A DNA stretch of 64,000 nucleotides from Octopus vulgaris (Eukaryota): positions 24,862,001 to 24,926,000 of the forward strand of contig OX597821.1 of assembly GCA_951406725.2 (NCBI GenBank), in the 5' to 3' direction. The notes under the pieces were generated by a model, which was not told the DNA's origin, ran no database searches, and was given only the letters and a program-made list of their open reading frames with translations. Positions within the stretch are counted from its first letter, which is position 1; every line of letters starts with the position of its first letter. Position numbers and translations under genes: made by a program. This document shows positions 11,250 through 63,619 of the stretch, piece by piece.

Positions 11250-11298
<49 letters not shown>

Positions 11299-11311
11299 TA
11301 TATATATATAT

Positions 11312-12935: not shown

Positions 12936-13012
<77 letters not shown>

Positions 13013-13135: not shown

Positions 13136-13880
13136 TGTAGTGGGTGCTTTTTACATGCCACCGGCATGAGGGATAGTCAGGCAGTTCTGGCAACGACCAC
13201 GCTCAAAGGTGTTTTTACATGCTACCTGCACGGGAGCCTGTCTGGCGGCACTAGCAACAACCACACTTGAATATTGTTTTTCACGTGCCACTGGCATATG
13301 TGCTACACTGGTAACAATCATGCTTGAATGGTGCTTTTCATGTGTCACCAGCACAAGATCCAATCCATGACCCTCGCAGTGATCACGCTTGGATATGCTT
13401 CTTTTAAGGTTTCACTGGCACGAGTGCCAATCAGGTGGTACTGTCATCGGCCACGTCAGCAATTTTGATTTGTTTACACTTGCCTCAATAGGTCTTCACT
13501 AGCAAAGTTCATTGTCCAATGAATCAGGAGTACTCAGAAATGGGCTGGTTACATTCACTGGCATAGGCCTTGGGCTATAGTCTCACTTGGCTTGTCGGGT
13601 CTTCTCAAGCACAGAATATCTCCAAAGATCCCAATCACTTGTCATTGCCTCAGTAAGGCCCAATATTCAAAGGTCATGCTTCACCACCTCATCCCTCATT
13701 CATTCGCAACACATGATCATACCAGCACAGTCATCTCTCTTGCACACCACATGTGATGCTTCTTAAATCCAACTTTTCTCGCAGGGCACTTACACTCTGT
13801 TGTGTATGTGCACTGACATTACACATCCAGCGAAGCATACTGGCTTCATTCTTTTCAAGCTTACGCATGTCCTCAGCATA
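13136..13880 (-). mobile_element. RTE LINE 3' fragment (same family as 7810-9897)
   Basis: Reverse complement matches ~8970-9700 (AAGCCAGTATGCTTCGCTGGATGTGTAATGTCAGTG..). Confidence 0.8.
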
Positions 13881-13971
13881 AAAAGACATAAAAATAAACA
13901 AGCTTTTGACGGTTTTATAGATATTTCAAAATTATGATGGTAGGTGTTTCCATTATTTTGTCCAACTCCTG
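13881..13971 (-). mobile_element. Terminal fragment of the same Tc1 family as 10134
   Basis: GTGTTTCCATTATTTTGTCCAACTCCTG followed by TA; reverse complement of 10134-10220. Confidence 0.85.
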
Positions 13972-14069
13972 TATATATTGAATCTTGGTAGGGCACCTGG
14001 AAGGAATGGAATTTGTATTGAGGTCTTGTGAATTGGTGGTGATTACATCATACAGTCCCTTCATGAACT

Positions 14070-15625: not shown

Positions 15626-15627
15626 AA

Positions 15628-16163
15628 ATCATCATCATCATCATCATTCAACGTCCGCTTTCCATGCTGGCATGGGTTGGACAATTTTGACTGAGCGCTG
15701 GTGAACCAGATAGCTGCACCAGGCTCCAATCTTGATCTGAATGAGTTTCTACGGCTGGATGCCCCTCCTAACTCCAACCACTCCGAGAGTGTAGTGGACG
15801 CTTTTTACGTGCCACCGGCAAGGGGGCCAATCTGGCAGTACTGGTAATGACCTCGCTCAAATCTTTTTACACATGCCACCCGCACAGATGCCTGTAAGGC
15901 GATGTTGGTAATGATCACACTCAAATGGTGCCCTTTTACCTGCCACTGGCACGGAAGCCAGTTGGCTCCTCTGGCAACGATCACACTCATATGGTGCTCT
16001 TGGCACCCTACTAGCACGGGCACAAGTGCCAGTAAGGTGACGCTGGTAATGATCACACTCGAATGGTGCCCTTTTATGTGCCACTGGCACGGAAGCCGTT
16101 TAGCTGCTCTGTCAAACGATCACACTCATATGGTGCTCTTTGCACCCCACTAGCACGGATGCC
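15628..16163 (-). mobile_element. RTE 3' UTR fragment with an internal ~125-bp tandem duplication
   Basis: (ATC)n at 15628. The unit GTAATGATCACACTC..ATGGTGCCCTTTTA..GCCACTGGCACGGAAGCC..GATCACACTCATATGGTGCTCTT occurs twice (~15890-16020, ~16020-16160). Confidence 0.8.
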
Positions 16164-16333
16164 GAGAGCACAATGGTCTTCATTAGTCACAAGTGGACAG
16201 CCATTATATATATCTGCTTTATAAAATAGTTCATACTTTAGTATGAATCGAAACAGCTGTTAGAGATCATATTTATTTTTGCAGTTAATAAATATACTTA
16301 TTAATTTATGTATCTCCATTTTTTTATTTGTCT

Positions 16334-16375
<42 letters not shown>

Positions 16376-16859
16376 CGTGTGTGTGTGTGTATATATATAT
16401 TATTTATACACACACACACACATATGTATGTATGTGTGTATGTGGGTGTATGTATGTATGTGTGTGTGTGTATATATATATGCGCATATACATATGTATA
16501 TATATGTATCACCATCATTTAATGACCATTGTCCATGCTGGCATGGGATGGACAGTTTGACCAGAGCCGGGAAGCTGCACCAGACCCCAGTCTGGTTTGA
16601 TATGGTTTCTATGGCAAGATTCCTTATCTAATGCCAACTACTTTACATGGTGTGCTGGGTGCTTTTACATGGACCTGTACAGTCACTTTTCATGGCCTTG
16701 CATAAGTGCTTTTATTTGGCACTGCACAAGCACTTTACATAGCACCACTACGAATGCTTTACACCACCAGAGAGACCTGTCTTAACACTTCTTCTGTGAA
16801 GTATGGATCCTCCTGAGTGCAGCAAAGCATCAAGCCTCTCAATCCAATGCTGTTACTGA

Positions 16860-17960
16860 CAAATAGAAAAGACAGCAAACAAATACATCAAAGTAGCAAG
16901 AAAGGAGATATAGACCAAAATGAAAAGCACCCGCTGCAGCCACATCATGATAGTAGCAATAATAGTGATATAGCTAACATGACAACAGTATGAGAAAATA
17001 AAGTCAGACCTGCCACATATACAACTAAATCTAATAAATCAAAATGCCCATTGTTGAACCTTACGAATCTTGTATAAATGTACCATACATACAAGAGAAG
17101 GACTGTGTTTACATTAGGGCAGCTGCTGATTCAGTCAAGAATCATTATTGCAACCATGTCGCCAGCTTCAAGGAAGTCAACAAGAAGCATTCAACATCTT
17201 TGGCTGATTTTGTGTGGTGACTTAAGAAAATTAAAATTAAATATAATCTAACTCCATAATAAGGTATGCACAACCATATATTCTTTCCAGGAGATGCAGA
17301 CTCTGCTCCAAGGAATCCCTGTCTATTTTGTAGACCAATGAGAAGATTATTATAGAATTTCTGAAAGATTCTCAATATACCTGCTTATAAATGCAATTTC
17401 GCACAATGCAGTGGGAATGAATTTGAGTAACCGCTAGCCAAATTTATAATCATAATTCACCTTAAGGTATGGATGAATTAAATTTAACTCTAGCCTGCCC
17501 ATTCTTATAAACACTAAGTAGCTATTTGATTCACTGTGAGTGTATGTGTGCCAAATCACACATTTGTATATGCTTGTCTCTTCATAGATGTTTGTACAGG
17601 TAAGTGTACGTGCGCTACAACCTAAATGAGGGTGTTTATACATTCATATCTGTTAACGGTTATATTTAATAGTTTTTTTTTCTGTATTGTGTATTCGTTT
17701 CATTTTGCATCTGTTATTTATTATTGATCTATAAAAATGAAGCTGTATCCCTTAATTTTCTGCTTTCCTATGCACACAAACCAAGAAGATATCTTGCGGA
17801 ACAGTCGTTACTTTAATGAGATACATCTTGTAATCACCTGAAGAGACACATCTACAACGACAGATACTCCTAAACCAGTTGTTAAGTATCCCACCCATTA
17901 GGAATCAATGCTAGATGGGTTGAAACACTTATAGTGCTTGATAAACATTCTTGTATCTTC
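16860..17960 (+). mobile_element. Penelope-like element 3' remnant (GIY-YIG endonuclease plus 3' pseudo-LTR)
   Basis: About 17040-17330 translates with frameshifts to KCPL..NLVYKCTI..VYIRAAADSVKNHYCNHVASFK..KHSTSLADFVW*LK..PY..RCRLCSKE, the PLE GIY-YIG pattern. Confidence 0.75.
17832..17939 (+). ncRNA. Degenerate type I hammerhead ribozyme-like motif
   Basis: Stem I AATCAC/GTGCTT, core CTGAAGA (17838-44), stem II GACACATCTA/TAGATGGGTT, GAAA (17922-25), candidate cleavage triplet ATA (17931-33). It lies at the 3' end of a PLE, where such ribozymes are known. Confidence 0.45.
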
Positions 17961-18011
17961 CATCCTTCTCATTAATCAAATATATATATTTACATGTATA
18001 TGTGTGTGTAG

Positions 18012-18061
<50 letters not shown>

Positions 18062-18789
18062 ACACACACACACACACACATATATATGGTTGATTGTAAA
18101 CTTGTGCAATGTATAAACTTAGTAGATTTTTAAAATTAGTTGCTTTATTTGGCTGCAGTCAGTTTGACGATCTCTGGCTTAGGGTCTCTCTCAGGATAAG
18201 TTTAACTTTTGTTTTTACATCAGCATGTTGAATATAAATATTCTGAAGAGTCCTGCAACAGTTTTGAGTATTTTATTTGTCATTGCAAGGGTTCTATACA
18301 TCTTTCTAATTAAACTCTTGTAACAAGTTGAGGTAACACTGAATATTGTATGTTTATGTAGATACATAAGTAAGGATATATTTGATTGATGGCTCTATTC
18401 CCTTGAGTCAAACACTTGCTAATAAAGCACATGTTAGTTATCCAATACCTCTACTCTAGATTCTTTCTGTGTCTGAGTCACTGAGACCTAATTATTCCAA
18501 ATGTAGTACTGTTCTAATGATATATGAACCATTAATCTTGTATTTGGAAAATCAACATTAAGTTAGTTCACCCAACTCTAATCCTCTTTCTTCATGATTT
18601 AGGAAATTACAAATGCAGAATATTAATAGGTATTCTGTATGAACATTTCTCTTACAAGGGAGTAAATTTTACGTCAAATGACTTGGAAAAGCATTTTGGC
18701 TGACATCTTGTAAACTGGTTAAACTAAAAATAATTGGCTGTAAAATGTTAAGACTTTCATATTATGGTGGTTATCTGATAGATATTTAA

Positions 18790-18998
18790 CCCTTCTTCTG
18801 TCAAAGGTAATGTTTATTTGTTTATATTGTGTTTTGAGTTTATCATACATTATCTGGTAGCTTTGAGATTTTGATGATGTGAATATTTATTTTTAGAATG
18901 ACATTGTAGGGTATATGGCAGAGACCAGATCTGGCTGGTTTGAACATAGAACAAGTAGAATATTTTGGCCAGATATGGCCACTTTGAATGCTAAAGGG
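18790..18998. mobile_element. piggyBac-type MITE
   Basis: TTAA-CCCTT..AAGGG-TTAA termini with a TTAA duplication on both sides. Confidence 0.65.
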
Positions 18999-20820
18999 TT
19001 AAAGCAATTATATCTTTCATTGTTTTTATTATTATGAGCCTTATTACTTACGAGACATTTTTCTTTCCTAAAACCATTTACGTACATAAATTATGTTAAT
19101 ATGTCTTTTATATTGTTGTCTCTTGTAATCTGCAAAAAATAGACTACTTTTTAGTTTTCATTCAGTTGATGCCCTTTTTTTTTTCTTTTTAAGTAGTATT
19201 TATTTCGATAAATATTAAATTGTAAAATATGAATATAGGGCCTAATTGTCTTTCAATAATTTAACACTTTAGTTCGCTCTTAAACTATACGTTCTACCTG
19301 CTTCATGTACTGTATGTAAATCAGGACCGCTATACTTAATTATCTCCCCTACATTCCGTCTGTTCAAACCGATCTAATTCAGCTAACGCTTTGCCTACCG
19401 TGGGAATCACTGGTGACTCACCATGCTACCAACTTTATATACCGTGAGAGTCACCAGTGACTCCCAATGCTGTTGTTTTGTGGAGGGGGTTCTATTACTT
19501 TGACTCAAACTACATTATTCGAAATTTAGGAAATGTACAGAACATGTTTCATTGTATTTCTTTGATGGTTTTCAGTTTGTATCAACAGAAGCTGAGATAG
19601 GAACTGACAAGAAGGGTACAAGTCACTGTCATCTCCATCATTGGAGTACTACTCTCTATAAAATAATTTTTGTAACGAAGAACTCATTAAGGCATATATA
19701 ATATAATCTGAAGGAAAAAATCATAAATAAATGAAAACGAATCCATAGATGGAGGTATAATGAAAGTTTTAACACTTTTTAACATGTGTCACCAGTGACA
19801 CTCATGGTACAGAGTGAATAAAATATTTTTGTACCATGGGAGACTCTGGTGATACCCATGCTATGAATCAATATGGCAGTTCAAAAATCATACTAGAACA
19901 TATATATGATTACAAAATTTAAAAACAATTTATTTCCTCATCTTCATTATCATCATCATTTGACGTCCACTTTTTCATGCTTGCTTGGGTCAGACAATAT
20001 TTGTTGAGGCAAATTTTCTATGGCCAGATGCTTTTCCTGATATCATCCCTCACTATTTCCACAAAGCAATAATTTATGTGAAGACAAGAGTACATGTTAA
20101 ACATACACATACAGTTACATATATATATATATATATACACACACATACACACAACATATATTTGTATGTATATATATATATATATATATACGTGTGTGTC
20201 TCTATACACACACACATAGATATATATATATGTGTGTATATACAACAACAGCTTTCTTTCTATTTCCATTTATCAAATCCACTCACAAGTGGATTTGGTT
20301 AGCTCAGGGCTATAGTTGACACTTGTCTAAGATGCTACACAGTTGGACTGACCCTGGGACTACTTCTTATAATGTACTAAAGGGATTAAATTCAATAATT
20401 ATTAACACTGCTGTATCACTAAATACTGGATCTTTGGACACACTCCTGACAATAATACCTGTTAATGCCCTGTCCATGTCCTTGTATCTCTATTGTTATA
20501 CAATGTTTTTATCATTTCCCATTTTAAATACAATATAAAAATATCACAAGTGAAAAGTTTCATCTGTTATCCTAAAAGTGTAATCTTCCAAGAGTTATCC
20601 TTTTAATCTGTACCTTTTATCTTTTTCTTGTTTCAGTCATTGAACTGTAACTATGCTGGGGCACTGCTTTGAAAGGTTTTAGTCAAATGAAGACTCTGTT
20701 ATTTTTATTTTTTTAATTATACTATTTACTCTATCGGTCTCTTATGTCAAACAGCTATGGGGCTATAAACAAACCAACACTGGTTATCAAGTGTTAGTGA
20801 GTGACAAACACAAAAATATA

Positions 20821-20859
<39 letters not shown>

Positions 20860-20946
20860 AGATATATATATATATATATATATGTATTATCTTTTACCTG
20901 TTTCAGCCATTAGATTTTAGCCATGCTGGGGTACCACCTATATATA

Positions 20947-21180
20947 CAGGGTTAGCCAAAAGTCACTTGACAGTAAGTCAAAACCATTTAATTCCAAGAT
21001 TTATCTATGTTTAACAACTGAATGAATTTGATAAAAGTATCTGAATATGAAACATCATGAAAATCATTCAGACTGAAGTCCTTCTTGAGCGACACCATTT
21101 TCCCAAATGAATAAATAAAATTGAATATTAAGTGTCTATGGAATTTTTATTTACTATCAGGTGACTTTTGACCAACACTA
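20947..21180. mobile_element. Tc1/mariner-type MITE
   Basis: ~30-bp imperfect TIRs CAGGGTTAGCCAAAAGTCACTTGACAGTAA / TTACTATCAGGTGACTTTTGACCAACACTA in a TA context. Confidence 0.75.
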
Positions 21181-21185
21181 TATAT

Positions 21186-21796
21186 ATATATGAAAAAGAA
21201 GAAAATGGAGAAATTGACATATAGACATCAATTTATTGAAAACAAATCCAATTTTGAACAATATCAAACTCATAGAATCTACAATTGTTTCCATACCCAG
21301 TCAATTTAATTCAAATTAGAAATTTAAATGAAAGATTCATATTGGATTATAACTTATTGAACATTTTGTCATGGTCAGAACTTGATGGAAAAATGAACTA
21401 CATTCCAATGTGTTGATACATCATTGGTAGACTCAGCATTAAATTCAGATACGTGCGCTTGTGCATCCTAATGTATTTTTTAAAAAAAACCATTACTTGT
21501 GTAAATGCAACTTTGTTTTAATTGGTGCTCATCTGAATTTAATGCTGAGTCTACCAATCATATATCAACACATTGGTATGTAGTTCTTTTTTTTCTATCA
21601 AGTTCTGACCCTGACGAACTGTTCAATTAATTATAATTCAATATGAATCTTCAATTTAATTTTTCTAATTTGAATGGATTGGACATGGAAACAATTGTAG
21701 ATTCTATAAGTTTGATATTGTTTGAAATTGGATTTGTTTACAATAAATTGATACCTATATGTCAATTTCTCCATCTCCTTCTTTTTCTTATACATA
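21186..21796. repeat. Foldback element: ~270-bp imperfect inverted arms with a ~70-bp spacer
   Basis: 21186-21456 is the reverse complement of 21526-21796 (e.g. ATTGGTAGACTCAGCATTAAATTCAGAT / ATCTGAATTTAATGCTGAGTCTACCAAT). Confidence 0.9.
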
Positions 21797-21914
21797 AATG
21801 GTAATATATCCATCAATGTGAAGTTAATACCTTTTAGTATTTCACTGATACACTGGATAAAACCAGGGAACTTGGATGTTGACATCCTTTTAAGAGGTAT
21901 TTATATCCTTGAAA

Positions 21915-22283
21915 AGTGGAGGCGCAATGGTAGCGGACTCGCGGTTGTAGGATCGCGGTTTCAATTCCCAGACCGGGCATTGTGAGTGTTTATTGAGCGA
22001 AAACACCTAAAGCTCCACGAGGCTCCGGCAGGGATGATGGTGATCCCTGTTGTACTCTTTCACCACAACTTTCTCTCACTCTTACTTCCTGTTTCTGTTG
22101 TACCTGTATTTCAAAGGGCCGGCCTTGTCACTCTGTGTCACATTGAATATCCCCGAGAACTACGTTAAGGGTACACGTGTCTGTGGAGTGCTCAGCCACT
22201 TACACGTTAATTTCACGAGCAGGCTGTTCCATTGATCGGATCAACCGGAACCCTCGTCGTCGTAACCGACGGAGTGCTTCCAA
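21915..22283 (+). mobile_element. Well-preserved tRNA(Arg)-like SINE (OR-type) with a 12-bp TSD
   Basis: tRNA-like head GGAGGCGCAATGG..GGACTCGCGG..GGTTTCAATTCCC, CpG-rich body. TSD ATATCCTTGAAA at 21903-21914 and 22284-22295. Confidence 0.85.
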
Positions 22284-22479
22284 ATATCCTTGAAATAATT
22301 AACGTACATACATACAGACAGACTATATGTTTGGGAAGCAAACATTTTACCACACAGCCATACCTATACTTTCATTCTGTTTACAAATGTCTTATTTTAT
22401 TTAATACGATGTATTTTACATTTTTATATCAATTAGTTATTACAAACATGACTCTGATCTTAAGTTTTCACACCAATAC

Positions 22480-22860
22480 CTGCTCAGTGAAGGTGGTATG
22501 AATCCAGCCAACTCTGAAGAGCATATGCCATATTAGTAGTGCCACAAATGGCTAAAAAAACAGATAGTGTGCTGGAGTATATCTGTGAATGACTTTATTC
22601 CAAGCAGCCCTTTTCTGGGTACATTCTAGAATGTCTGTGTGTAGCAACAACACCATCCTAAATAATATTCCATTGTGGGCCTCACTTGAGCTTTGTAGAG
22701 TGTGGTTAATTGTTGGAGTTGAAGTATCTCCTGGTCCTGAAGAGAATGGCTTGTCATTGGGATATGGTCCTAACTATGTTAAAGATATGCTTTTTCAGTG
22801 GAGATCCTCAGCGATATTGAGACCCAACATTTGGAGCAATTGTGAAAGCTCTATTTGAGC
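22480..22860 (-). mobile_element. Old L2/Daphne-like LINE fragment
   Basis: Minus strand reads LQMLGLNIAEDLH..LFRTRRYF..TLYKAQVRPTMEY..ILECTQKRA. Confidence 0.65.
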
Positions 22861-23356
22861 ACTACAGTATTTTACACATTTTACCAATAAGTTTCATGTT
22901 CAGTTCCACAGCACATGTCTTCAGGAGAGTTTTGGGTCAACTAAAGTCATGTTAGAGATATTTGGTTGGTAAACTGTCAGAAGGATTATTATTATTTTTG
23001 AGCAGTAGACATTTTTTGGATCCTGGTTTATCAGTACCACCTGTCCCTTGGGTAAGTTTATCACAGTCCATTCTGTTAGAAACATTCGTGCTAGATCTCC
23101 ACTCTAATAATAATATCGATCATTCTTCATCTCAGATTTTCAGTCAGAAGTAGCTAGGATGATGAAATCATTTAAAAAATTTTTGTTGAACCTCAGAAAA
23201 AAACTTTAAAATTAATGTTTTCTCAGTTATATTATACACTCTTGGAATTCAACTGCTTATATATATATATATATGTATATATATATTGTCCTTACATCAT
23301 AAATCTGAAACAGAAGCACACTCTAAGTTATAGAGCAGCAGAGTATTTAGATAAAG

Positions 23357-23542
23357 ATAGTTATGACCAGTCTATTGAGTCATCCCAAGTTTCTTGTCCA
23401 TAAAGCACTTAGCTTTACAGCGTCCCTCCATTTTGAAGAGAGGTAATAGGCCATTGCCCATTAGAGTCTGATGAGACGCTGTAAAGCCAGGCGCTTTATG
23501 AACGAGAAACTCAGAATAACCCTATAAACTAGCCATAACTAT
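23357..23542 (-). repeat. 68-bp-arm hairpin with a 50-nt loop
   Basis: Arms 23357-23424 and 23475-23542 align without gaps, with 14 differences. Confidence 0.85.
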
Positions 23543-25084
23543 TTTTTTTTGTCCATATAACCATTTAGTTCATTATACTTTCTAACTAGACAGTGGTTTT
23601 CTAATTCTAATTTCAAATCTGGAACTATTTAGATATTTCCTCATAGACATACTTACTATGCAAAATTAATTCAAAATACATTTGTAGTTCTTAATCTTAT
23701 ATTTTCTAATATCAAATGTTTTGTGATGAATACCATTATGCATCTTATTTAATTGTGTCTAGAAACTGGTTGATTGATTAAATTTTGTGTAATGAAAGAT
23801 ATGTATACCATTGCACTTATTGCCTTCAGGTGAAGGTTACATACATTCAATTTCAAATTTATAAATATCTAAAAATTTAAAGTAATATATAGAATATAAT
23901 TTAGCACAATCAGTTATTAAACAATTTTGATATAAAGTAAACATACATTGAAGTGAGATTTATTTTGTTCCTAAATTATGTTAGATTTAAAATTTAGAAT
24001 TTCAGTCTGTTTATTGTCTTGTATTTCCAAGTTAAAACAAAAAAATATGCTAATTTGTATATTTGTCCCTCTCATAATTTGTGAATCTCTTAGATTTTAT
24101 TGTTCAGTTTCCAGTGTTTAATTTTTCTTTGATTAATTTAAATTGTGTTTGCCACAACACCTGCAAATATAAACTCTAGTTAAGCTTGGTTTCACACAAC
24201 CGACTTTAAGTATAATAAGCAACATGATATTCTATTCTAAATCTATAACCTCATTTGCAGTCTTTTAGATACGTTTTCATCATAAATGTTACACCCAAAT
24301 GAAGGCTATCTATTTCAGTTTATTTCCTTAATGATATTAATCTTATTTTACCATTAATTGTCTGATATTTTTGATCTAACACTAATGTTTGCAATTATAG
24401 TGTATTTTTATTTTTACTGTTGTCATCTCCATTTTAACTTCCATCAGATTTTTTTTAATAGTTTCTTGCATTTGATATCTTTTACAGCACACATGTTGGA
24501 AAACTTTATAATTGAAAATTAATACAAAATAAGTATATATTACTTGGTTTGCCAGGCTTCTAAAGCATATATTTATAAAGATTTTTGTAATATTACCTAA
24601 ATTCAAAAGTATTTTATGTACAGGATGACATAGTTTTATTGCTGCTAAATGCTTTGTCTGCCACTCATCTATAAAAGCACCTTAATGCAAAACATAGACA
24701 TGAGAGACTAGTAGAAGATAAGACAATATAATATACAACTAAGGGCTTCTTTGCAGCTAGTTCAGTTAGTTGATTTTGCTTTTTATTTTTTCAAAGTCAG
24801 TAAAATGCACTTGAGTTAATTTTATTAAATAAACACATAGCTTAAAGATTTGACTCCTCTTACTTATAATGGCAGATAAAGTGAAATGAAATAGCTACAT
24901 CTGGGAACTTGACTACAATACAATTTCAGTCTATTGGTAACTTTACATCTTCACTCTGCTTCTTATTGTCTCTATGAAATAAAGAATTGATTGATTTACG
25001 GCATGACAGATCAGGATTAATAAATATCACTTAGCATTTTATTCGATGCCAGCTCACTGCTTTAATAATAGTAATAATCATTTC

Positions 25085-40804: not shown

Positions 40805-40903
40805 ATGGAGGAGTCAGCAGACCTTGTCTTCAACTCTCAGAATATAATGAGTTTCAAATCTTCAGAGTATGACATCAATGACTTTTTAGAAAGTTTTAAT
40901 CAG
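40805..40903 (+). CDS. SYCP2: SYCP2-like gene, putative first coding exon (MEESADLVFNSQNIMSFKSSEYDINDFLESFNQ)
   Basis: Strong polypyrimidine acceptor (..TTTTCCAG 40794), ATG at 40805, donor CAG|GTAAAG at phase 0 matching the next exon. Homology is weak, so membership in the gene is inferred from position and phase. Confidence 0.55.
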
Positions 40904-41261: not shown

Positions 41262-43007
41262 GGTAATGGAAGTCACAGAGAGGTTCATAGCCCAACTAAT
41301 TAGGAAGAGAGTTTGGTTTTGTGCCAGGGAGAAGCACCACTGATGCTATATTCCTGGTAATGCAGCTACAGGAGAAGTACCAAGCCAAAAATAAGCCCCT
41401 GCACTTGGCTTTTGTTGATGTGGAGAAAGCCTTTGACAGAGTCCCCTGCTCCCTTATCTGGTGGTCAATGTGGAAACTAAGGATAGATGAGTGGTTGGTG
41501 AGAGCTGTACAAGCCATGTACAGGGATGCTGTCAGTAAGGTGAGGGTCAGCAATGAGTATAGCAATGAATTCAGGGTACAAGAAGAAGTTTACCTAGGAT
41601 CAGTCCTCAGCCTCCTCTTGTTCATCATAGTCCTTCATGTAATAATGGAGAAATTTAAGTTGGGCTGCCCCTGGGAGCTCCTCTATGCTGATGACCTTGT
41701 TATTATAGCTGATTCACTACCAGAACTAGAGAAGAAATTCCAGATGTGGAAGCAAGATCTAGAATCAAAGGGCCTTGGTGTGTATTTAACACAAACCAAA
41801 GTCTTAGTAAGTAGGAAAGCGAATAAGTCACAAATCCTTTTAGGTAGATAACCCTACTCAGTATGTAGAAAAACCATAGGTAGAAACTCCATAAGCTGTA
41901 CTTGGTACAAGTTATGGACACATAAGAGGTGCAACAATATTGGAGGAAGGTTAACAAGAAAAATTGTCTTTGTGTGGCAGATGCACAGGTACAATAAACA
42001 CTAGAAATGTAAAGAAAATAGACTCCATCAAATGCCAGAGGGGATACCTATAAGAAGTAGTTGATAGCTTTCATTATCTAGGTGACCAAGTCAGCAGTGG
42101 AGATTGATGCTCCAAGACTGTAGCTGCTAGAATAAGAATAGGCTGAGCAAAGTTCAGAGAGTTTCTATGTTTGTTAGTAACAAAGGGCCTCTCTCTCAGA
42201 ATAAAAGGCAGGCTGTATGTTGCCTGTGTGTGAACAGCCATGCTCCATGGCAGTGAAATGTGGGCTGTGAAAGAAATGAAGCTAGTATGCTTTGCTGGAT
42301 GTGCAATGTCAGTGTGCATAAGCAACAGAGCGTGACTTGAGAAAAAAACTGGGCATAAGAGGCATCAGGTGTGATGTACAAGAGAGATGAATGTGCTGGT
42401 ATGGTCATGTGATGCATATGGATAAGAACAGATGTGCAAAGAAGTGCTGATCTTTAACTGTGGAGGGAACCTGTGGAAGAGGTAGACCCAAGAAGATGTA
42501 AGATGAGGTGGTCAAGCATGATCTTTGAATGTTGGGCCTAATGGAGGCGATGATGAATGACTGCGACATTTGGTGATATGCTGTGCTTGAAGAGCTGTGG
42601 CTATAAGAGTTGTGTCATGTAAATGGCGCCTGTGAAATCGTAATCATGACCATTGCTTGTAGCATGATCTTCAAATGGTGGCCCTCACAGAGACGATGAC
42701 AAGTGACCAAGACCTTGACAATATGTTGTGCTTGAGAAGACTCATCAAACCAAGTGAAACTGTAGTCATGGCTATTGCCAGTATCATATAAATGGCACCC
42801 ATGAAATTCTAGTTGTGGCCATTGCTGGTGCATGTAAAAAGCACCCATTATACTCTTCAAGTGGTTGGCGGTAGAAAGGGCATCCAGCAGTAGAAACCAT
42901 GCCAAATCACACTGAAACCTTGTGCAGCTCTCCAGCTTACTAGTTCCAGTTAAACCATCTAACCCATGCCAGTATGGAAAGCAAACATTAGATGATGATG
43001 ATGATGA
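41262..43007 (+). mobile_element. 5'-truncated RTE LINE (family of 7810-9897) in an SYCP2 intron
   Basis: PGRSTTDAIF..AFVDVEKAFDRV..GSVLSLLLF..LYADDL; ends in (GAT)n. Confidence 0.92.
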
Positions 43008-45404
43008 TTCACACGAAGGATGAGTATAAGTAAAACTCTTACATTGCTTTCATTTTTTTACCTGTTAGTTAAACTTACCCATTCAATAAATAGAGTTTAG
43101 TGTAATAAGTACAAAAGCAAAATATGATGGACTAAAACCTTTGAAGATGGTGCCTCAGTATGCTTCAGTCCAGTAGTAGAAATCGGTAAAAGTGTAAACA
43201 GAGTATTCTTCTTGATCATGTCATTTCATCTGTGGGGGTCAACATCTTGAGATCTACTTTGAAAATGCCCAGTCAACAATGCAGAGAAGTGTAAACTTGT
43301 TTTTGTATTCCCACCAGTTCTGGAATATTCTCAAAAGCAACAACATGAGAATATGAATATTTCTTTGTATTATGTTTGTATATTAACAGTATCAGGGCAA
43401 GTCAACTAATATGACATGCTACAGATTACCTAGCTACGAGGAATAGGTATATCATATCAGCCTTGATTGGGTACAGATATATCATCTAAGACATTCTAAT
43501 TGTAACACCTGCTCTTATTTACATTGAAGTGAACTGATATATCTTTTTTTAAAGATAGATGGGTGTAATTTGAGAACAATCTATCTGCTAACAAATTGAG
43601 CGACTCCATAGAGGCTTTCTCATAAAATTAATAAATTCCACAATGTTCTACATCTGAAAATGTTACCTATCTAAAAGATAGAGATTATCTTTTGCCTGTT
43701 TACTTTCTCCAGGGCCTTTAGAGATGTATTTACAGTTATTTCATAATACAAACAAATGTTCATGTTGTTGCTTTTGAGAATATTCCAGAACTTATGCTCT
43801 CAAAACCAATGTATAGTATATTTCCCTTTACAAGTTTTACATTGAGCTGGTTTTCATTTCATTTGATATGAATGCATGTTCTTGGTTTGTCATTCCAGAG
43901 AAAATAGGCATTTAATGACAATCAGTTTTATTTTTGCCATTCAGTGTTTGTGAACTTCTATAAATAATAGCTGTTGCTTATAACTTTACTTTGTGTAAAT
44001 TGATGAGTCAACTTCAGGGTCTTTGTATGCCATCAGTTACCAGCATCTGTCAATTACTTGAGAACCATACATCTTTAGTTTATGATTTCAGCCAACTATA
44101 ATAGATTGAGATGGAATTCTGTCATGATCGAGTTACCAGTGCCTAAATGAGAGACAGACAGAAAAGCCTTGATATTTATATAAAAAATTTTATTGGTGTG
44201 AACATGCTGTCTTTAAGATAGCATGTTTTGCATTGATTCGATATCATTGTGACATATATTCTTATAGTGTATATTCATAAGTATGCATATGGCATGCATG
44301 TGAGAAGAATACTGGCAAGACATACAACATGGATGAAGGTCAAACCTCAGTAATGGAAAACATAAAGAAGAGCAATAAGATGAAATGCAATTATGTTAGA
44401 AAGAATGGGCATTTATAAAGTAATGAAAAATTACAGCTTAAATGCTGCCAATTAATTTACATATATATATATATACATGCACACACACACATTGATGCAT
44501 TTTTAATGCAGTTAGTATTTATTACTAAATTCATTATCATCATATACTTTTATACTGTCTTTGTATATGTATAGTGAAAAACTATGCCCAACTCATATCA
44601 TTGTCACCCTTTTGATGCAAACCAAACGAAAGAAGTATATTGTTTGTTTGTATATAACATGCAGTCATATAATCAAACATTGTTATACAAAATGAAAGTG
44701 AAGTGAAGCAAGCCAATATGTAGATATTTAATAGCAATGTAAACTTAGTATTGTTAAAGCTATGAAATATTAATTCTTGGAAGAATGCCTGCAAAAAATG
44801 CAAAATTTAAAGCTTCAATATGAAATATTGCAAAGTAGTTGTTAATAGAACATACATTTAATATTAAAAAATAACAATCAACAAATGAAGAATATTAACT
44901 GAATAAAAAGAAAGTGGAACATAAGTTGTAATAATATAAATGAATCCTACTACCAAAAAGTTTTCAACACAAAATTTGTCAATAACTAAAACAGGCTTAA
45001 AACAAAATATTATTGGTATTAAAGAAGCAAGAAGAAAGCACAGTTAATGATAATAAATATGTAAGTAAAAAGCAATGAAAATTTTTTAATGGCTTATATC
45101 ACACACAATTAGCAAATGAAGTTGTAGAGATATTTGAGCCTGCAGTGTTTTTCCTAGTAGAAATTTAAATGAGAAGTTACTTTTGTTTGCAATTGTGCAT
45201 AAACTGTAGTCTTGACATGAACACTTCACTCTGGTGGGGGACAATATAAAAGAGGCCACAGCATATCATTGCGCATGCATTACCAAAAATAATGTGCATT
45301 TTAAAAAAATAATATTGAAGATACAATTGCTCACTCAACATTAATAATGCTTTCATATCTTATATTACAGATGCATGTTAGAAGTACATATTTATTATTT
45401 TCAG

Positions 45405-45539
45405 GGAATTTTCCAGAAAACATTGCAGTATCAGACATGTTTAAAGCAGCTAACTCATGTATTTTCCTGGTTACTGGGTGAACTAGAAGAAAACCCTTCT
45501 GTTATTCCAGATTTGATATCACAAGGAATTCTTGATCTG
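45405..45539 (+). CDS. SYCP2: SYCP2-like exon (GIFQK..LISQGILDL); 3' boundary non-canonical
   Basis: Acceptor TTTTCAG at phase 0. LISQGILDL resembles vertebrate SYCP2 MIKQGLIQK (recalled). Followed by ATAAGT rather than GTAAGT. Confidence 0.65.
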
Positions 45540-47086
45540 ATAAGTCATAAAACTTTTTTTCTTATTAAATAACATATTTTCAAAAACTTCTGTAACTTTG
45601 TCCTGTGTGTTGTTCATTCTCTTTCCGATGAGCCTTTGCAGCGTAAATGAAGTGAATTTTATTCAAGAGTCAATCAAAATCTGCTTGTAAACTTGGTTTG
45701 CTAAGGAATTACAGCATTAATGGAAAATTAGTTAACAAACTTAGTTGTGATTTGAAATAAAATTTTAGCTACTCCATGTACTGGCAAGTTATCTATTATT
45801 TTCTTTCTGACTCTTATTAAGAGATTATTTTATTGGAGTAAAATTTTATTTTTATTAGATGCTGATTAAATATGGGATCTAGACTTGTGAAAAAAAGACA
45901 CTGGTCAAATAATTTAATCTCTTCAACTTCATATTTACTATAAGTTATATGTTTTCCTTATATTTTCATATAGAGAGTCACTATTGATCTAGCAATCCTA
46001 TTTGATTCTCTTTCTGCTTTCTTTCTATCATCTCCAGAACTACAACTCTTTATCTATATTTTCTGTACAGCCGTCAATCTATGTCAACATCACCACTTTG
46101 GGACAGTCTGCAAACTCACCAAACACTTACTAGGACTAAATACTGATTTACAACTCAGTATCTAAGATTTAGAAAACTTAAGAAATTTTTTTCATTTATC
46201 ACATTAAGATAAATAGAAGTATTAATTATTGAAGTATACAACCATGAATGATAAATTGTACAAATTTGAGAGAAAATGACTAGATATAAAGACAAGGAAC
46301 TCATATATTATTACTGTCCAAAAAGAAAGATAGAAAAAACCAAATTTCTTGGTTGACCAAGCTAGAATACAGAGGGATTGACTTAACCCTCCTTTGTTAG
46401 ACAAATCTCTAAAACATGCAAGTATATGAAATGGAGTGAAGGTCATATGTGAATAGAAAGGAAAATAGTAGAGGAATTAATAACAGTAATATAAGATAAA
46501 ATTTTATAACATTTATCTATTGTCAGTAGCAGCTATTAAACATCCTTCTTTCTTTATAAGCATGTTAGATATTGCTACATACAATACAGTATGTCTCTGT
46601 ATATTTTGTTCATTTATCATCTTACCTGTGTAAAACAATGCTTTTCCATCTACTCTGATTATTTTATCTCTTCTTTTCTTCACTCTGTAGTAGAGGAGCC
46701 TTCCAACAGCAAATCTTGACTTCGTTTAAAAACATTTTTTTTTATCAAAAATTTATTATCTGATTACATTACTTACTTGATTATCATCTCATATTACATT
46801 GTCATATTTTTTTCATTTATTAATTAATATTTCTCTTGCATACATTAACTAATATCATATCTCCTACATACATTATCCAAAATGCTAAATGTTTATTTAT
46901 TATTTCAATAATTTTGTGTATATATCACATATGGTCCTCTATGTTCATTGTATGTTTCATTCATGCATCTTATACACACCTCATATACTTCTTAAATGAG
47001 AAATTATTTGTTGTCTGCCATTGGTTCATGAGCAGTTCATTATATAACATAAATAAAAAGAAGCTACTTTATCTAAACCATACCAA

Positions 47087-47752
47087 AAGATGGCTTCTAG
47101 AAGTAATGTTTCATTATTGTTTATATTGTCTCCAGTCATGTGAAAGTTTGATCAAAACATATCCCTATAATCTTCTTTACTCTTTAAAATGAGTGAACCT
47201 AAACAAATTGATATTGTATAAATTGTGACTAAGAAGTAAACCACTTTCAAACTGAGTTTGCAATCCCATTTTCAATAGATATCACAAAAAATTGCCACTT
47301 TTCCACAGACAGAAGGATTGCCTGTTCATAAGTATTATGATTACATAGAATATACAAGCATTTGATGATTGAGTTTGTTTTCTTTCATTATTATATTTTG
47401 TTTGATATTCATGGCACTTTGGATGGAAAAGATTGTGTATATTGAGATAGTTAAGTATTGCTGGATTGTTTTGTTTTATATATATATATATATATCAATC
47501 ATCAAATGCTTGTATATTCTATGTAATCATAATACTTATGAACAGGCAATTTTTTGTGATATCTATTGAAAATGGGATTGCAAACTCAGTTTGAAAGTGG
47601 TTTACTTCTTAGTCACAATTTATACAATATCAATTTGTTTAGGTTCACTCATTTTAAAGAGTAAAGAAGAGTAGGGATATGTTTTGATCAAACTTTCACA
47701 TGACTGGAGACAATATAAACAATAATGACACATTACTTCTAGAAGCCATCTT
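47087..47752. repeat. Near-perfect inverted duplication (47087-47372 vs 47495-47752)
   Basis: Long runs of exact reverse complementarity. The right arm lacks a ~27-bp segment bounded by ATTGCC repeats and is flanked by (TA)n. Confidence 0.93.
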
Positions 47753-47761
47753 CTATTATAC

Positions 47762-47794
<33 letters not shown>

Positions 47795-47824
47795 TGATGC
47801 TCTTCATATTACTGTCAAAGCAAA

Positions 47825-48052
47825 GGTGGTGAGCTGTCAGAATCATTAGCATACCGGACAGAATGCTTAGCAGCATTTTTTCCACTAAGTGTATTGTCTG
47901 GCTTTACATTCTGCATTCAAATTCCATCAATGTTGACATGGCCTTTCATCTATTTGGGGGTCATCAAAATAAATACTAGTTGAACACTAAATTGATGCAA
48001 TCAACTAAAACCCATCCTTTAAAATTGCTGGCCTTGTGCCAAAATTTGAAAC
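47825..48052 (+). mobile_element. Nin/Deu-domain SINE
   Basis: GGTGGTGAGCTGTCAGAATCATTAGC..GCCTTTCATCTATTTGGGGGTC. Confidence 0.75.
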
Positions 48053-48259
48053 AATAGTACTGTCAACACAACTGTGAAGTAAGAGGAGAATTAGCTTTCT
48101 GGTAATAGGGTTTTAACAGTGACTGTAATAAGATTGTGAAATCATGCCTGTGTGATCAACCATTCAGTACCTTAACTTTAGTTTTAACTACGTATCGTAA
48201 AGAAAGAAATTGTTAATCCTCAATGTCAATGCATAATAATGTTTTTATTTCAATTTTAA

Positions 48260-48358
48260 TGTTCAGATTTTATTACAATTTTTGTTGAACTGTCTGAGGA
48301 GCAAAAGCTGAACCCTTTGTCTTTGCCAGTATTTGAACTTACTTTGGAGATTGTAATT
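48260..48358 (+). CDS. SYCP2: SYCP2-like exon (CSDFITIFVELSEEQKLNPLSLPVFELTLEIVI); 5' boundary uncertain (48260 after AA, or 48267 after AG)
   Basis: Open frame ending at a perfect donor ATT|GTAAGT at phase 0, matching the next exon. T-rich tract upstream. Confidence 0.6.
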
Positions 48359-49914
48359 GTAAGTATTTTTGGAGTGAATTTTATTTGTATCAGCCAGTTA
48401 TTGACACTTGAAATATACCGTATAATTCTGTTAAAAGAATTTCATTTTGTTTATTTGATTATAGTGAATTACTTTTAAACAGTATGTATATATGTAACAC
48501 TTTTGTAGTTTGTGCATATATGTTCACTGTGTTGGCAACTTTTTATATCGGGCCTTGTTTTACATGCTACAGAAATGTAATCAAAACTCTGGCAAGATTT
48601 GAACTCACTGAACATTTCATAATTCATTCATCTTTCTACCCACTTCATACATACTGGACATTTTGTTCAAGGAATATATTTTAAGAATTTAAGGAATAGA
48701 TGGCACTTTTAAAGAATATTTAGACAATATTACAATTTTTCTCTGTGGATTATGGCATAACTTATTATAATTTATTATGTGTAGGTTTGTTCAAACATCA
48801 GGTAACAAATTCTGACCAACTGAGTCACCAATGTTTGGACATTAATGGATTGTCTATAGGGATAACCACAAAAATGAGTTATGTAAAATTGTTCTTTTTT
48901 ATTTCCTATATATCAACAAAAATTAGTCCTCTTCCAATCTCATTGGTAAACTAACTATGATAATTATGCAGCACTTGATTTATGGCTACAAATTTCTGCA
49001 TATAACATAACAGATCTTAATTTATATCAGTCATGACAAGTTTACTTACGTGTATTTGTGAGAATACTTAATTTTGTGTTTTACAAAATCAATCATCTAA
49101 TGTCTCACAGAAATGTATATACAAATTTTCTTGTGTTGCAATTCAATAGTATTTTACAATTGTGTGCAAGCAGATAAATGGTTATCAGTGAAGAGAAAAA
49201 TCAGATAATATGCATAGATTTAAACTGGTAGAAATTATTCTGTTGAGGCTAGACCAAGGCTAACATTTCACTGGGAGAGGGAGAGAGAGAAAGAGGAAGC
49301 CAGTAGTTTATTTCTCTTCAAATACCACAATGTGACTAAATGGATTATCAGTTTCTACTTGGCTAAAATAACAGTAAACTATTTCTTTTACATGAAGCCA
49401 CTATATATATATAAAATTTTGAAGATTGTTTGAGGTTAAAACTCAAATTTATAAAAATACATAATGAGGAACTAGATTTTTGCAATTTCAAATCCCTTTA
49501 GGGTCTTAATAGGTCAGTTACACTTTTAACATACCCCCTGAGTCGAAAATCAAATGTTTTGTTGATATTGTCAGATCATGCATACATTTTATTATGCTCA
49601 TTATAGAATGTCTATTCACATAAAATTTACTTTCAAAAAGCTATAACATATATTGTATAAGCTGAAGTGAGTCTGAAGGGACAGAAAATTACGATAGTTT
49701 TTTCCTTGCCACATGTTATTATGATTCATTGAGATATTTGACACTTCTTTGCTGAAGTTTTTTTTTTTTTTATGTTTGAAAAATATGCTTTTACTTTGTA
49801 AAAGCTTATTTTTCATTTAGGGAAGGGCTAACAAGGAAAATTAAAGGACATATTTGCCAGGAATGTTACTAGAAGTGAAGCCTAAGATTCAGTCTCCAGT
49901 GATGCATCGGAGAT

Positions 49915-52148: not shown

Positions 52149-52449
52149 TAGAGTGGTTGTATACTGTCAACTTAACGTGACAGTCCCGTATGGGAATTAC
52201 ACCACTGCTGTTTAGCCCTAGGAAGCATCAAACGCTTCCTGTCGTCTTTGACATATTTTCTGTGTCCTTATATTTGTGAAGGGGAGGCAAGCACCCCTAC
52301 CAGCCAAGATTCACACCTTCACAAATATAAGGACACAGAAAATGTGTCAAAGCCAACAGGAAGCATTCAATGCTTCCTAGGGCTAAACAGCGGTGGTGTA
52401 ATTCCCATACGGGACTGTCACGTTAAGTTGACAGTATACAACCACTCTA
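52149..52449. mobile_element. Palindromic MITE/foldback element (~134-bp arms, 33-nt loop)
   Basis: 52149-52282 is an almost exact reverse complement of 52316-52449. TA at both ends. Confidence 0.88.
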
Positions 52450-52787
52450 TCGCTCCATCACCGCTCATGTCTCTTTGAGACATTTAGAAATTTAATATTT
52501 CTGATTAATATAATTGTTATTATGTTTTTATTACAACAATTTGTATACTAAATTTAATAAATTATGAATAGCTGATGATAGAATTCTGTTCTCAGTATTT
52601 TGTACTAATTAGTTGTTTGTTATTGTGTGTATGTATGTACATACATAGACAGTATTTAGTCAGTTGATGAAAATTCTGTGATTCTGAATGAAAGTGCCCA
52701 AAGATATCATATACAATACACACACACATACAAATGCAATGTTTCTATGTATGCATGCATGCATATATATATATATATATATATTTA

Positions 52788-53514: not shown

Positions 53515-53539
53515 GTTATTGCTAATACAAGTGCTGAAA
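53515..53539 (+). CDS. SYCP2: SYCP2-like 25-nt micro-exon (VIANTSAE)
   Basis: TTTTCAG|GTT..GAA A|GTAAGC, phase 0 to 1. Resembles vertebrate VIHDVSDEG (recalled). Confidence 0.75.
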
Positions 53540-54933: not shown

Positions 54934-56905
54934 GTAAGAACTATATCCATTTCACAAGAATAAAATTGATGGACCAATAAAAAAATGCTTGCCAAAAGAT
55001 AACAAACCCTGAAACTGTTCTCTCTCTTCCTTGTAGTGTATTACTAAGAACTTGACATATGCCTCACCACCACAAGACAAGCTTTGACTGGTCTCTTGTA
55101 GGCATGCATAGTATATGGTTGAACATCTACCTTGATCACACAGCAATGATATATCATAGATTATTACTCAGCCTACCACTTTTCATGACTTCTTCATTTG
55201 TGATGAAATCATTCCAAGAAATTCTCAATATGGTCCTAAAGCAATGCCTGGTGAAGACATCTGTACTCCTATAGATTTTGCTGTTTTTTTTCTATGTCTT
55301 GCATTGTTCTCAGAACATAAAGACAGATGAAATACCACTAAGCGTTTTGCCTCACATGCTAAAGATTCTACCAGCTTGCCACCTTAAATATATTATTATT
55401 ATTATTGAGCACAAATCTGTAAAAGGAAATAGACACCAGTCTGCTATAAATGTAGAAGGAAACCTCCATTTCTTACATAGAAAATAACTTTTCAAACGAA
55501 TCTGTTCTGTTACATAGAAAATGCTTTCGTTAGAAAAAACACTTACCCATTTACAGCTACTTTTCAACCTGAGCAATGCTGGAGTTTCTCATTTTCAAAG
55601 TAATCTACTGTTAATAGTTTGTTATTCATGCATTTTGTATTCAGTTGGAAAGTGTCTTGTGAATAATTTTATAATTGATAAGATCATCAATGCCAGATTT
55701 AAAGTTATACTATGGTAACATCTGTATTTATATTCAGGATCATTTGCTGGACACTGAAGCATCACAGTATTTCTTATTTGATGTTCTTTTAGTCACCCAA
55801 AATGACCTCAAATGAAAAATATAGTACTGGCAAAATGAATAACTAATCTCTATTACATGCATTGAGTTTTCTGTTCCTCTTTCATTTAAAATACTCCAAT
55901 GTAATACTGTTTTTGATGGCTTATAAGATACCTCTGGATTTTGACAGACTCTAGACTTTTGCTAGACTTACTATCAAAGATGGCTTTCAAAATACAATTT
56001 TTGTTTCAATATTTGATTTAGACCAAAATTCTTGCAATTTAATTTTATCTCTATGTTGTATTTAAATTTCTTATTTCATGTATGGTACTTGCACTTTTTA
56101 CAATCTTTTCTAATGAGTTGTAGAGCACATAAGCACTATATAAGTTCATTCACTATTATTATTATTATTATTATTATTATATCCTTACTTAGTTTTAAAA
56201 TATTTGTGTATATCAAATAACAAGAAAAGCTAATGCCAAATGATCCTATGTTTATATTTCATATGAAGTAAATGCATTATTTAAACTATCCTGGTTTGTT
56301 GTTGGAATTAAAATTAATAATTTATTGCATATCTTAAAATAATTGTTCAACTTGTAATAGACTAACAAAAAGTTATATCGATACTGGATTGTGATTATGA
56401 GTTTGTTTTCTTGCAGTAAGACGTACCCTTGTTTTAAAGTTTACTGAACTTTTGATGGAATGTATTTTAAAAGGCTGTTTGCCTTTTTTAATTCGTCTAC
56501 AGGTAATTCATTATTTCTGAAATAAGAACACAAACTTTCTCATTAACTGCTTGCTTCTTCACCTTGTTATCTTTCAGTATTAAGTCGTTGTTTCAGTGTT
56601 TGTGTAATTAAAAAAAAAAAAAAAAAACATTCCAATAACTCTATATATTAACACATATATAAGTCCATTGTCCTTACTATTTTGATGTTGAAATATGCAA
56701 AACGCCTTTTCTATAAAGGATTCATTTGTTACTGCAGCTGTAAACAGCACAAATTAGTAAGAACTATCTCTCCTTCACAAAAATAAAATTGATGGACCAA
56801 TAAAAAAAAAAAACTGTTTACAAAGGATAACAAACCCTGAAAGTGTTCTCTCTCTTCCTTTTATTGTATTACAAAGAACTTGACATATGCCCCACTACCA
56901 CAAGA
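54934..56905 (+). repeat. ~145-bp diverged direct repeat pair (54934-55077, 56757-56905)
   Basis: Shared ATAAAATTGATGGACCAATAAAAAA..GATAACAAACCCTGAAA..TGTTCTCTCTCTTCCTT..AAGAACTTGACATATGCC. Confidence 0.85.
55697..55782 (+). CDS. SYCP2: SYCP2-like exon ((N)LKLYYGNICIYIQDHLLDTEASQYFLFD), weak splice sites
   Basis: CCAG|AT..GAT|GTTCTT, phase 1 to 0 as the neighbours require. LLDT resembles vertebrate VIDS (recalled). An alternative candidate is 55645-55703. Confidence 0.45.
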
Positions 56906-60098: not shown

Positions 60099-60187
60099 GC
60101 TCTCAAGTATTCAAATCTATTATTTGAGCACTGTCCTTCTTCTGTTAAAGAAACTCTGAATTTAAAACCACAACATCAAAATAATTT
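60099..60187 (+). CDS. SYCP2: SYCP2-like exon (ALKYSNLLFEHCPSSVKETLNLKPQHQNN-L)
   Basis: TATAG|GCT..TT|GTAAGT, phase 0 to 2. Resembles IIKKMNAMLDKMPQDARKIL (recalled). Confidence 0.8.
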
Positions 60188-61502: not shown

Positions 61503-61537
61503 AAAAAGTATCATCAAGCTGATAACAACTATTGGTG
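61503..61537 (+). CDS. SYCP2: SYCP2-like 35-nt exon (KSIIKLITTIG)
   Basis: TTTCAG|A..GGT G|GTAAGG, phase 2 to 1. Precedes the GDY motif. Confidence 0.85.
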
Positions 61538-61811: not shown

Positions 61812-61951
61812 ATTATGAATTCCAGGTGGCCATTGTTGAATACACATTTCGATCCATTTCTAAGAAATTCCGCTCACAAGAACTGTCTAATTTGTCTGAT
61901 CCCAATATATTCTCTTTCATCAATTCTATCAAAGATGAAACTTTCGAAAGT
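61812..61951 (+). CDS. SYCP2: SYCP2-like exon (DYEFQVAIVEYTFR..SIKDETFES)
   Basis: Canonical AG/GT. Matches the SYCP2/SYCP2L motif GDYDLQVGITEALCR..RIKDSEFET (recalled). Confidence 0.9.
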
Positions 61952-62824: not shown

Positions 62825-62877
62825 GATTGCAGAAAATGTTTAAATGCCTTTAACAGTAACCAAGGAATATATCAGAG
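62825..62877 (+). CDS. SYCP2: SYCP2-like exon (DCRKCLNAFNSNQGIYQ-R/S); gene continues past the window
   Basis: TTTACAG|GAT..AG|GTATGA. Matches DCRIFLNLVNGMLGDKRR (recalled). Confidence 0.88.
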
Positions 62878-63619
62878 GTATGATTAAATAAAAAAAGTTT
62901 ATCATATATCAGCAGCTTAAACTGCACCATCACATCTATGCCTAACTATAAAATAACATGTTGTATCAATAATTTACCAACTATCATATACATAAAGCAG
63001 AATCTGAAAGCTAAACAAGGTATAGTAATTGAGTAATTTACCACTTGTGATTAGAATTTAGTTATTAGACAAAATGAAAATAAAATCCTTATTAGCATCA
63101 AGCATCCCTTGCTAAATGGGTACTGTACTAAATCAATTATGCCAAATCAGTTCCACCCAAGCATAACTAACTCCACTTTCTGGTGATGGTCTGTGTCAAC
63201 AACAATTATTTTGTAGTCTATTTCATGGAAGAGTGTGGTAAGTTCAGTTGTTGTTAAGAGTAAAGTATCTGATGTTTCAAGCCCTTTCATTTCATTTGAG
63301 TGCAGAAGAGAAAATAGTGCTGTTTTGTATTTATCTATAACACCACTTTTCCTTCTGCACTTAGTTGAAGCACAAGCCTGAAACTTTAGATTTTTCACTC
63401 CTTATAATGATTAAAAGTATCAAACTTATCCATGAATTGTCCTATAAGAGTATTATATTATCTTCACTTTTAACCTTTTCTTCTAATATTTCAATATTCA
63501 TTGTTATATTCTTGCTTTGTCATGTAGATTACAGACATGTATATATTCAACTTCTTAGTGCAATCAGAGCTGCCTGTGCTCTCTATGTAACTCTAAATCT
63601 TTTCTAATTGTTACATTTT

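Follow-up and report, generated by a model that had tools for sequence, protein, structure and literature searches.

How is an intron removed that begins with AT, ends with AA and interrupts the reading frame of a meiotic gene? The question is raised by the SYCP2 homolog of Octopus vulgaris, part of which lies on the + strand of the window analysed here, a stretch of 64,000 nucleotides within which all positions are given. Between residues L78 and C79 of this homolog the coding sequence is broken, in phase 0, by an AT-AA intron of 2720 nt (45540..48259, + strand), a placement that draws on the sequence itself, the ends of RNA contigs, RefSeq proteins and an alignment of homologs. The preliminary description of the locus had noted that the exon ending in QGILDL is followed at 45540 by ATAAGT, a donor of U2-like appearance except for the A at +1 and unlike the U12 type, and that the next exon in phase 0 starts at 48260, after TTTTAA. 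The sequence is as described: the donor side reads CTG followed by ATAAGTCA, with the intron running from 45540, and the 3' end of the intron reads TTTCAATTTTAA, with TTTTAA ending at 48259. The position of the AT-AA junction is unambiguous, no sliding to left or right being possible. Two explanations had been offered for it, an ancient non-canonical intron and a gate in which both ends are converted by A-to-I editing.

A single SYCP2 locus was found in the 2.8-Gb genome, in which the window lies on contig C8, and a search for a second copy returned none. Nine exons fall in the window, all on the + strand, and their joining through the AT-AA junction reproduces 254 of 254 residues of the RefSeq protein of O. 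sinensis (P0007), which makes an additional exon inside the intron unnecessary. The coding part of the start-codon exon (40805..40903; MEES...FNQ, with the start used by P0002 and P0007) was placed by tblastn and by the exon join to P0007. The exon before the non-canonical intron (45405..45539, 135 nt, phase 0) is the counterpart of human exon 5 and encodes the 45 residues GIFQ...QGILDL, its translation being 100% identical to an O. vulgaris protein with an SYCP2 domain (P0002), while the exon after it (48260..48358, 99 nt), the counterpart of human exon 6, encodes CSDF...LEIVI, is followed by GTAAGT and agrees with P0007 and with P0003 of O. bimaculoides. Exon joins also placed exons of 25 nt (53515..53539), 86 nt (56417..56502), 89 nt (60099..60187), 35 nt (61503..61537), 140 nt with a DYEFQV motif (61812..61951) and 54 nt (62825..62878), beyond which SYCP2 runs on past the window. 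The remaining seven of the eight SYCP2 introns in the window are GT-AG. The identity of the gene is borne out by an Spt16M-like domain (PF18584) in P0007, which scores 56.1 bits against a cut-off of 26.5, and by a match of the Argonauta protein P0001 to mouse SYCP2 (5IWZ, 5e-25); the Armadillo-repeat-like domain (PF18581) gave no Pfam match in octopus, though the region aligns with mouse and the exon boundaries are kept. Other features of the locus include an O. bimaculoides isoform (X3, P0010) in which the 25-nt and 86-nt downstream exons are skipped in frame, a decayed LINE-like reverse transcriptase fragment in the intron upstream (41300-43010, with an open frame at 41300-41848 and an LYADD motif) and a MITE-like region at 52176-52450, whose long inverted ends can be made out by eye at about 52150-52250 and 52370-52450.

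The preliminary description had proposed a search for the junction in RNA, and the positions at which contigs end bear it out. Four contig runs were compared over 43600-48700, none of them recorded as RNA, three being RNA by our guess (X1, X5 and X13) and one unlabelled (X17), and their evidence on the AT-AA junction consists of the positions of contig ends and not of letters read across the joint. Exon contigs stop precisely at 45539 in two of the four runs (X1 record 2, from organism A, and X17 record 15, from organism C), the first four aligned letters of the exon contig (45401-45404, TCAG) fitting the end of the upstream exon, and the unspliced contigs of both runs begin at the 30-mer 45510-45539. 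On the far side, in one of the four runs, a contig of 2888 nt (X1 record 5) aligns to 48260-48358 from its letter 31 on, after the 30 letters by which neighbouring contigs should overlap. If, as we take it, the contigs were built from 31-mer graphs, such ends are what a graph yields that forks at 45539, one path retaining the intron and the other spliced. In the donor bin of X1, 738 depth-letters are left unaccounted for by the listed pieces, and the 30 leading letters of record 5 would supply 699 of them. No contig of X17 covers the exon 48260-48358, the X5 contig stops at 45525 and the exons are uncovered in X13; such gaps (in X13, in X5 and, for the second exon, in X17) are uninformative, as the record filter drops contigs. 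The depth of the unspliced contigs, 7.75 against 23.3 for the exon in X1 and 8.08 against 31.4 in X17, is about a quarter of that of the exon, though contigs are a weak measure of level. Contigs of X17 run along the AT-AA intron but hardly touch the stretches of neighbouring introns that were compared. These depths hint at slow splicing with partial intron retention, in contigs that cannot measure levels.

Protein models divide over the same junction. The join LCSD is that of RefSeq, whose proteins read LCSDF in O. sinensis (P0007) and LCSDC in O. bimaculoides (P0003, P0010 and P0011), and RefSeq gene models as a rule rest on RNA alignments. Among the Logan-derived proteins of cluster P0014, five of the 15 that reach the junction read YL-FSEF, which has the length of CSDF and not that of INF. 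The join LIN appears in the GenBank proteins of O. vulgaris (P0002 and P0009, LINF) and in Argonauta (P0001, LINC). That an intron occupies 45540-48259 is confirmed by the evidence from contigs and proteins.

The intron has a counterpart in human. A variant, c.298-3dup, has been described at human SYCP2 intron 5, which the accessible part of that report labels U12-type (PMC11353295); its name places the exon boundary at c.297/298, that is, between codons 99 and 100 and in phase 0. In a MAFFT alignment of the 87 homologs with full N-termini, out of 162 collected, and with human numbering taken to equal that of mouse, octopus L78/C79 aligns to mouse K99/M100 in the same phase (QG-ILDL/C against QG-LVQK/M), and the following boundary, octopus I111/V112, falls on mouse M134/V135. 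In the accessible part of PMC8280824, a "major (U2-type) AT-AC intron" taken as a control is SYCP2 intron 5; the exon-5 primer encodes, by eye, VLGQAG, residues that in mouse (P0060) stand just before the junction. The SYCP2 and SYCP2L introns are both classed there as AT_AC/U2, and depletion of CENATAC drew no response from any of 85 major AT-AC or related introns. For the human SYCP2 and SYCP2L introns the rows seen give PSI values of 0.14-0.23.

A metagenome scan yielded seven loci, of which only one (L041, 1-1583) reaches the orthologous acceptor and none the donor. L041 is animal DNA that carries an SYCP2 homolog; among named matches its best is to the annelid Owenia, the best match overall being unnamed, and judged from that named match it is probably an annelid locus. 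Its exons measure 96, 25, 86, 89, 35 and 143 nt, against 99, 25, 86, 89, 35 and 140 nt in octopus, and five of its acceptors are AG. The orthologous acceptor consists of a branch-like word CTGAT, a pyrimidine tract and CAC followed by ATG, with the AC at 79-80; the contig starts after the donor, an in-frame AG lies 36 nt upstream of the AC acceptor, and there is no counterpart of a CAG found in octopus just downstream of the junction, where it may play a part in recruiting U2AF. At a further locus (L036:621-1242) an intronless-looking SYCP2-like match carries a stop and a frameshift and is perhaps a pseudogene or retrocopy.

Predicted protein homologs show irregularities at the same junction. 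Among the 162 predicted proteins, 74 could be classified at the junction: a K-M join is present in 31 of the 74 and nine start at the exon-6 Met, while the residue before that Met, where it is not K, is H or Y in 10 of 11 cases, which fits read-through of YAC, and in six homologs I follows K at the junction, which fits ATA. In two of the eight proteins reading "K then I" (P0017 and P0018) the match lies at another position, and these were not counted as support. Many vertebrate-like gene models begin or slip at the orthologous junction. In the mussels, P0005 (Mytilus edulis) is without the exon preceding this junction that is present in P0004 (M. trossulus), which may be another annotation slip at a non-canonical donor.

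The ancient non-canonical intron of the preliminary description is supported by human SYCP2 intron 5, which agrees with it in position and phase, and by the AC acceptor of L041, and the comparison of terminal dinucleotides that it had called for gives AT-AC for the human orthologous intron and AC for the L041 acceptor. As judged from these sequences, the A-type state of the intron likely predates the split of protostomes and deuterostomes, a parallel origin being possible, and in the lineage leading to octopus AC likely gave way to AA.

The splice sites of the octopus intron resemble those of the major class. ATAAGT (45540..45545, + strand) has A at +1 and matches the U2-type donor at five of five positions from +2 to +6, and it forms 7 of 11 Watson-Crick pairs with the genome's own U1, to which the seven GT donors of the gene form 6-8. 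The 5' end of U1 is the standard 12-mer in all of the best 30 of 42 matches in the genome, and among these no compensating or dedicated U1 variant was evident; more than 20 matches form a tandem U1 snRNA gene cluster at G000:C18, ~48.97-49.21 Mb. At the other end of the intron an AG-free zone with a U-rich tract (48207..48259, + strand) runs into the 3' splice site TAA, the region being free of AG from -54, with the nearest upstream AG at -55, and 57% T between -30 and -3, similar to the other acceptors of the gene. Candidate branch-point motifs (48169..48224, + strand) are ACCTTAAC at -91 and TCCTCAAT at -43. ATAAGT by itself is a common word, present 36 times on the + strand of the window, and it is RNA and orthology rather than the motif that carry the case. 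The last dinucleotide is AA and not the AC of the strict AT-AC II class, and owing to this end the octopus intron is a variant of that class and not a strict member.

Could a canonical join, or another spliceosome, account for the same exons? The preliminary description had found a single canonical solution, a donor at 45478 joined to 48267, but enumeration over the scanned range finds four GT-AG joins that keep the frame. The join 45477^48267, which removes 23 aa, is ruled out by the contigs, which continue through to 45539. Another of the four pairs a GT donor four nucleotides inside the intron (45544..45545, + strand; ATAA/GTCATA) with the AG of a CAG inside the downstream exon (48264..48266, + strand). 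If this were the true or main splice, the AT-AA intron would be an annotation artefact; the join keeps the frame, leaves a protein one residue shorter (LINF) and is used by the O. vulgaris models P0002 and P0009 and, judged from its protein, by that of Argonauta (P0001). Yet it predicts a contig branch at 45543 and a restart at 48267, where 45539 and 48260 were found, and of the seven letters that tell it from the AT-AA join one matches. Its donor is weak, with two of five matches at +2 to +6 and 5 of 11 pairs with U1, though duplex energies with U1 are near equal (-2.5 for the AT donor, -2.4 for the decoy) and do not separate the two. The RefSeq models of two Octopus species read LCSD, and the orthologous introns of human and L041 are non-canonical. 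We therefore regard this join as an extremely unlikely main splice, a minor real use of it being possible. A mixed join had been excluded on the frame in the preliminary description, and a reading of the sequence agrees: the AT donor joined to CAG 48264-66 leads to TGA at 48309-11. Removal by the minor (U12) spliceosome, of which AT-AA is a known subtype, has several points in its favour. Five U11 matches above the cut-off are present in the octopus genome, and the U12 branch consensus TCCTTAAC has a copy with one mismatch at -91 and one with two mismatches at -43, the two candidate motifs named above. U12 branch points usually lie 10-20 nt from the 3' end; the near-perfect motif at -91 is too far from it, and among the best three matches none lies nearer than -43. 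The donor matches the U12 consensus (RTATCCTT, +2 to +8) at two of seven positions, inside the range of two to four of seven seen for the GT donors of the gene. AT-AA is listed as a U12 subtype in Table 2 of PMC1557818 and in the ABHD18 and PIGB rows of the PMC8280824 supplement, as far as these are accessible, and the U12 label given to the human intron in PMC11353295 points the same way, but in PMC8280824 that ortholog is classed U2 and loss of CENATAC is without effect. Splicing of the octopus intron by the minor spliceosome is in our judgement about as improbable as the decoy.

In the editing explanation, conversion of A45540, of A48259 or of both to inosine would give IU...AI or AU...AI ends, and only edited pre-mRNA would be spliced. 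In human introns of the GT-AA and AT-AG kinds editing does create U2-like splice sites (PMC4176328, Table 2), the AA end is editable, unlike the AC of human and L041, and ADAR likely acts on the SYCP2 pre-mRNA: the unspliced contig of X17 carries A>G at 40 of 76 changed places, against five G>A. The cluster of these changes (47105-47161) lies some 1.5 kb from the donor in the left arm (47070..47372, + strand) of an inverted duplication, the right arm of which (47495..47769, + strand) is skipped by a contig of organism A (X1 record 4) in the contig alignment. The arms are identical at 256 of 258 positions, both carry A where the cluster falls, and in X1, whose contig is without the right arm, no G is present at the eight cluster positions listed. 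As read from contig differences, the cluster looks like A-to-I hyper-editing of a young, lineage-specific hairpin. The splice sites give another picture. No A>G at 45540 appears among the differences listed for the unspliced contigs, and 48259 is outside contig cover. No stable duplex over either site was found within 44000-49500: for 31 nt around each site the best duplex with a partner in that range has -17.3 kcal/mol at 45540 and -15.3 at 48259, values that 37 and 52, respectively, of the 60 control windows equal or exceed in stability, whereas the edited sites have -43 to -51 kcal/mol, and the local folds, with z of -0.74 and -0.04, do not improve on shuffles. The second arm of the hairpin is absent in organism A, where the junction pattern is nevertheless present; the orthologous intron functions elsewhere with AT...AC ends, and A-to-I change cannot make AC into AG; and the accessible table of PMC4176328 holds only single-end cases, all alternatively spliced. 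The proposal that both ends are edited thus gained no support, and we consider editing-gated splicing very unlikely; we say the same of an octopus exchange of AC for an editable AA by which ADAR editing would set the output of full-length SYCP2 and so gate meiosis. An editing gate is unnecessary to explain the intron. It might instead be supposed that the final A of the intron stems from an error of assembly or from a private allele and that the true intron is AT-AC as in human. The AC of human and L041 fits such a supposition, as does the reading of AA at 48258-48259 in a single assembly, the present one; against it, single-base errors should be rare in an assembly of 227 contigs and 2.8 Gb, and the data examined show no sign of error at 48259. 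This is the least probable of the readings considered. With regard to the hairpin itself, the inverted duplication is likely a young ADAR substrate and could affect the nuclear retention of intron-containing RNA, and 47805..48055 is a high-copy interspersed repeat, apparently SINE-like and without assigned strand, with a summed contig depth of 10,000-25,000 in all four runs.

We conclude that the octopus intron is very probably an ancient A-type intron of the major class in which AC has switched to AA and which is spliced as it stands by the U2 spliceosome. Its donor, CTG/ATAAGT, would be read by U1 and then by U6 through the perfect match at +2 to +6, and the 3' end would be set by a branch point and the U-rich tract. 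The second step would pair the A at +1 with the last base of the intron, A-C being the usual partnership and A-A a weaker one that is presumably tolerated, and TAA at 48257-59 would be favoured over the CAG 7 nt downstream, the use of which leads to the stop at 48309. Splicing would probably be slow, some transcripts keeping the intron. On this scheme the ancestor of protostomes and deuterostomes, at the latest, would already have had the A-type intron, the change from AC to AA coming in the octopus lineage. Precedents for the terminal pair are few. According to the accessible part of PMC8283771, A-C can stand in for the G-G pair of terminal bases, and splicing is weakly supported by A-A (Scadden and Smith 1995, as cited there), a pair known mainly from mutants and described as a poor fit to the cryo-EM geometry; the table of that paper seemingly holds no human A-A intron of the major type, and AT_AA occupies one of the 49 rows seen of the U2 A-type list of PMC8280824, as a predicted model. 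The combination of an A-type donor with an AA end is therefore very rare.

In the literature within our coverage, which leaves out subscription journals, no account of the orthologous SYCP2 intron outside human was found, and the supplement of PMC11347168 gave no match to SYCP2. Compared by sequence, the octopus intron appears to act as one of the U2-type AT-AC II kind, of which it is a positional ortholog, and it departs from that kind in the AA end. Through it a U2-type AT-AC intron of human would be known from molluscs and probably from annelids as well, and would join TAF2 as the second case of such depth, in a host gene that is meiotic, dosage-sensitive and tied to male infertility in the part of PMC11353295 seen. 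The octopus intron would also offer a test substrate from nature, a major-spliceosome intron on which the frame depends and whose terminal pair is A-A, and it explains a recurrent annotation error, the models of O. vulgaris and Argonauta having taken the decoy GT-AG.

Comparison with known systems, the published ones as given in the accessible parts of the papers cited, places the octopus intron closest to the AT-AC introns of human SYCP2 (intron 5) and SYCP2L, with which it shares the gene family, the codon boundary, phase 0, the A at +1 and a non-AG end. Partial retention is also common to them, with PSI values in human and in octopus an unspliced depth of about a quarter of the exon's, a weak measure. 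It differs from human SYCP2 intron 5 in ending with AA and not AC, in belonging to a protostome, in its length (2720 against ~760 nt), in the adjacent in-frame GT-AG decoy and in the lineage-specific edited hairpin inside it. With the U2-type ("type II") AT-AC introns of SCN4A/SCN5A and TAF2 (PMC1557818) it has in common a U2-like donor with A at +1, and the TAF2 intron is conserved between human and Drosophila, across protostomes and deuterostomes as in SYCP2; its terminal pair is A-A where theirs is A-C, and PMC1557818 has AT-AA among U12-type introns only. The U12-type AT-AA introns of RASGRP4, MSH3, ABHD18 and PIGB (PMC1557818 Table 3 and PMC8280824 supplement) have the same terminal dinucleotides, and a switch between AC and AA in orthologs is on record in MSH3, AT-AA in human and AT-AC in mouse (PMC1557818), but in introns of this type the U12 branch point is close and the donor is ATATCCTT, where octopus has ATAAGT. 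The editing-created sites of ADARB1 (GT-AA), NRK and C14orf37 (AT-AG) in Table 2 of PMC4176328 likewise present a terminal A in an animal that edits its RNA; in those introns a single end is non-canonical, the splicing is alternative and A>G is seen at the site itself, whereas in octopus both ends are non-canonical, the junction is essential to the frame and the search for a duplex partner found none.
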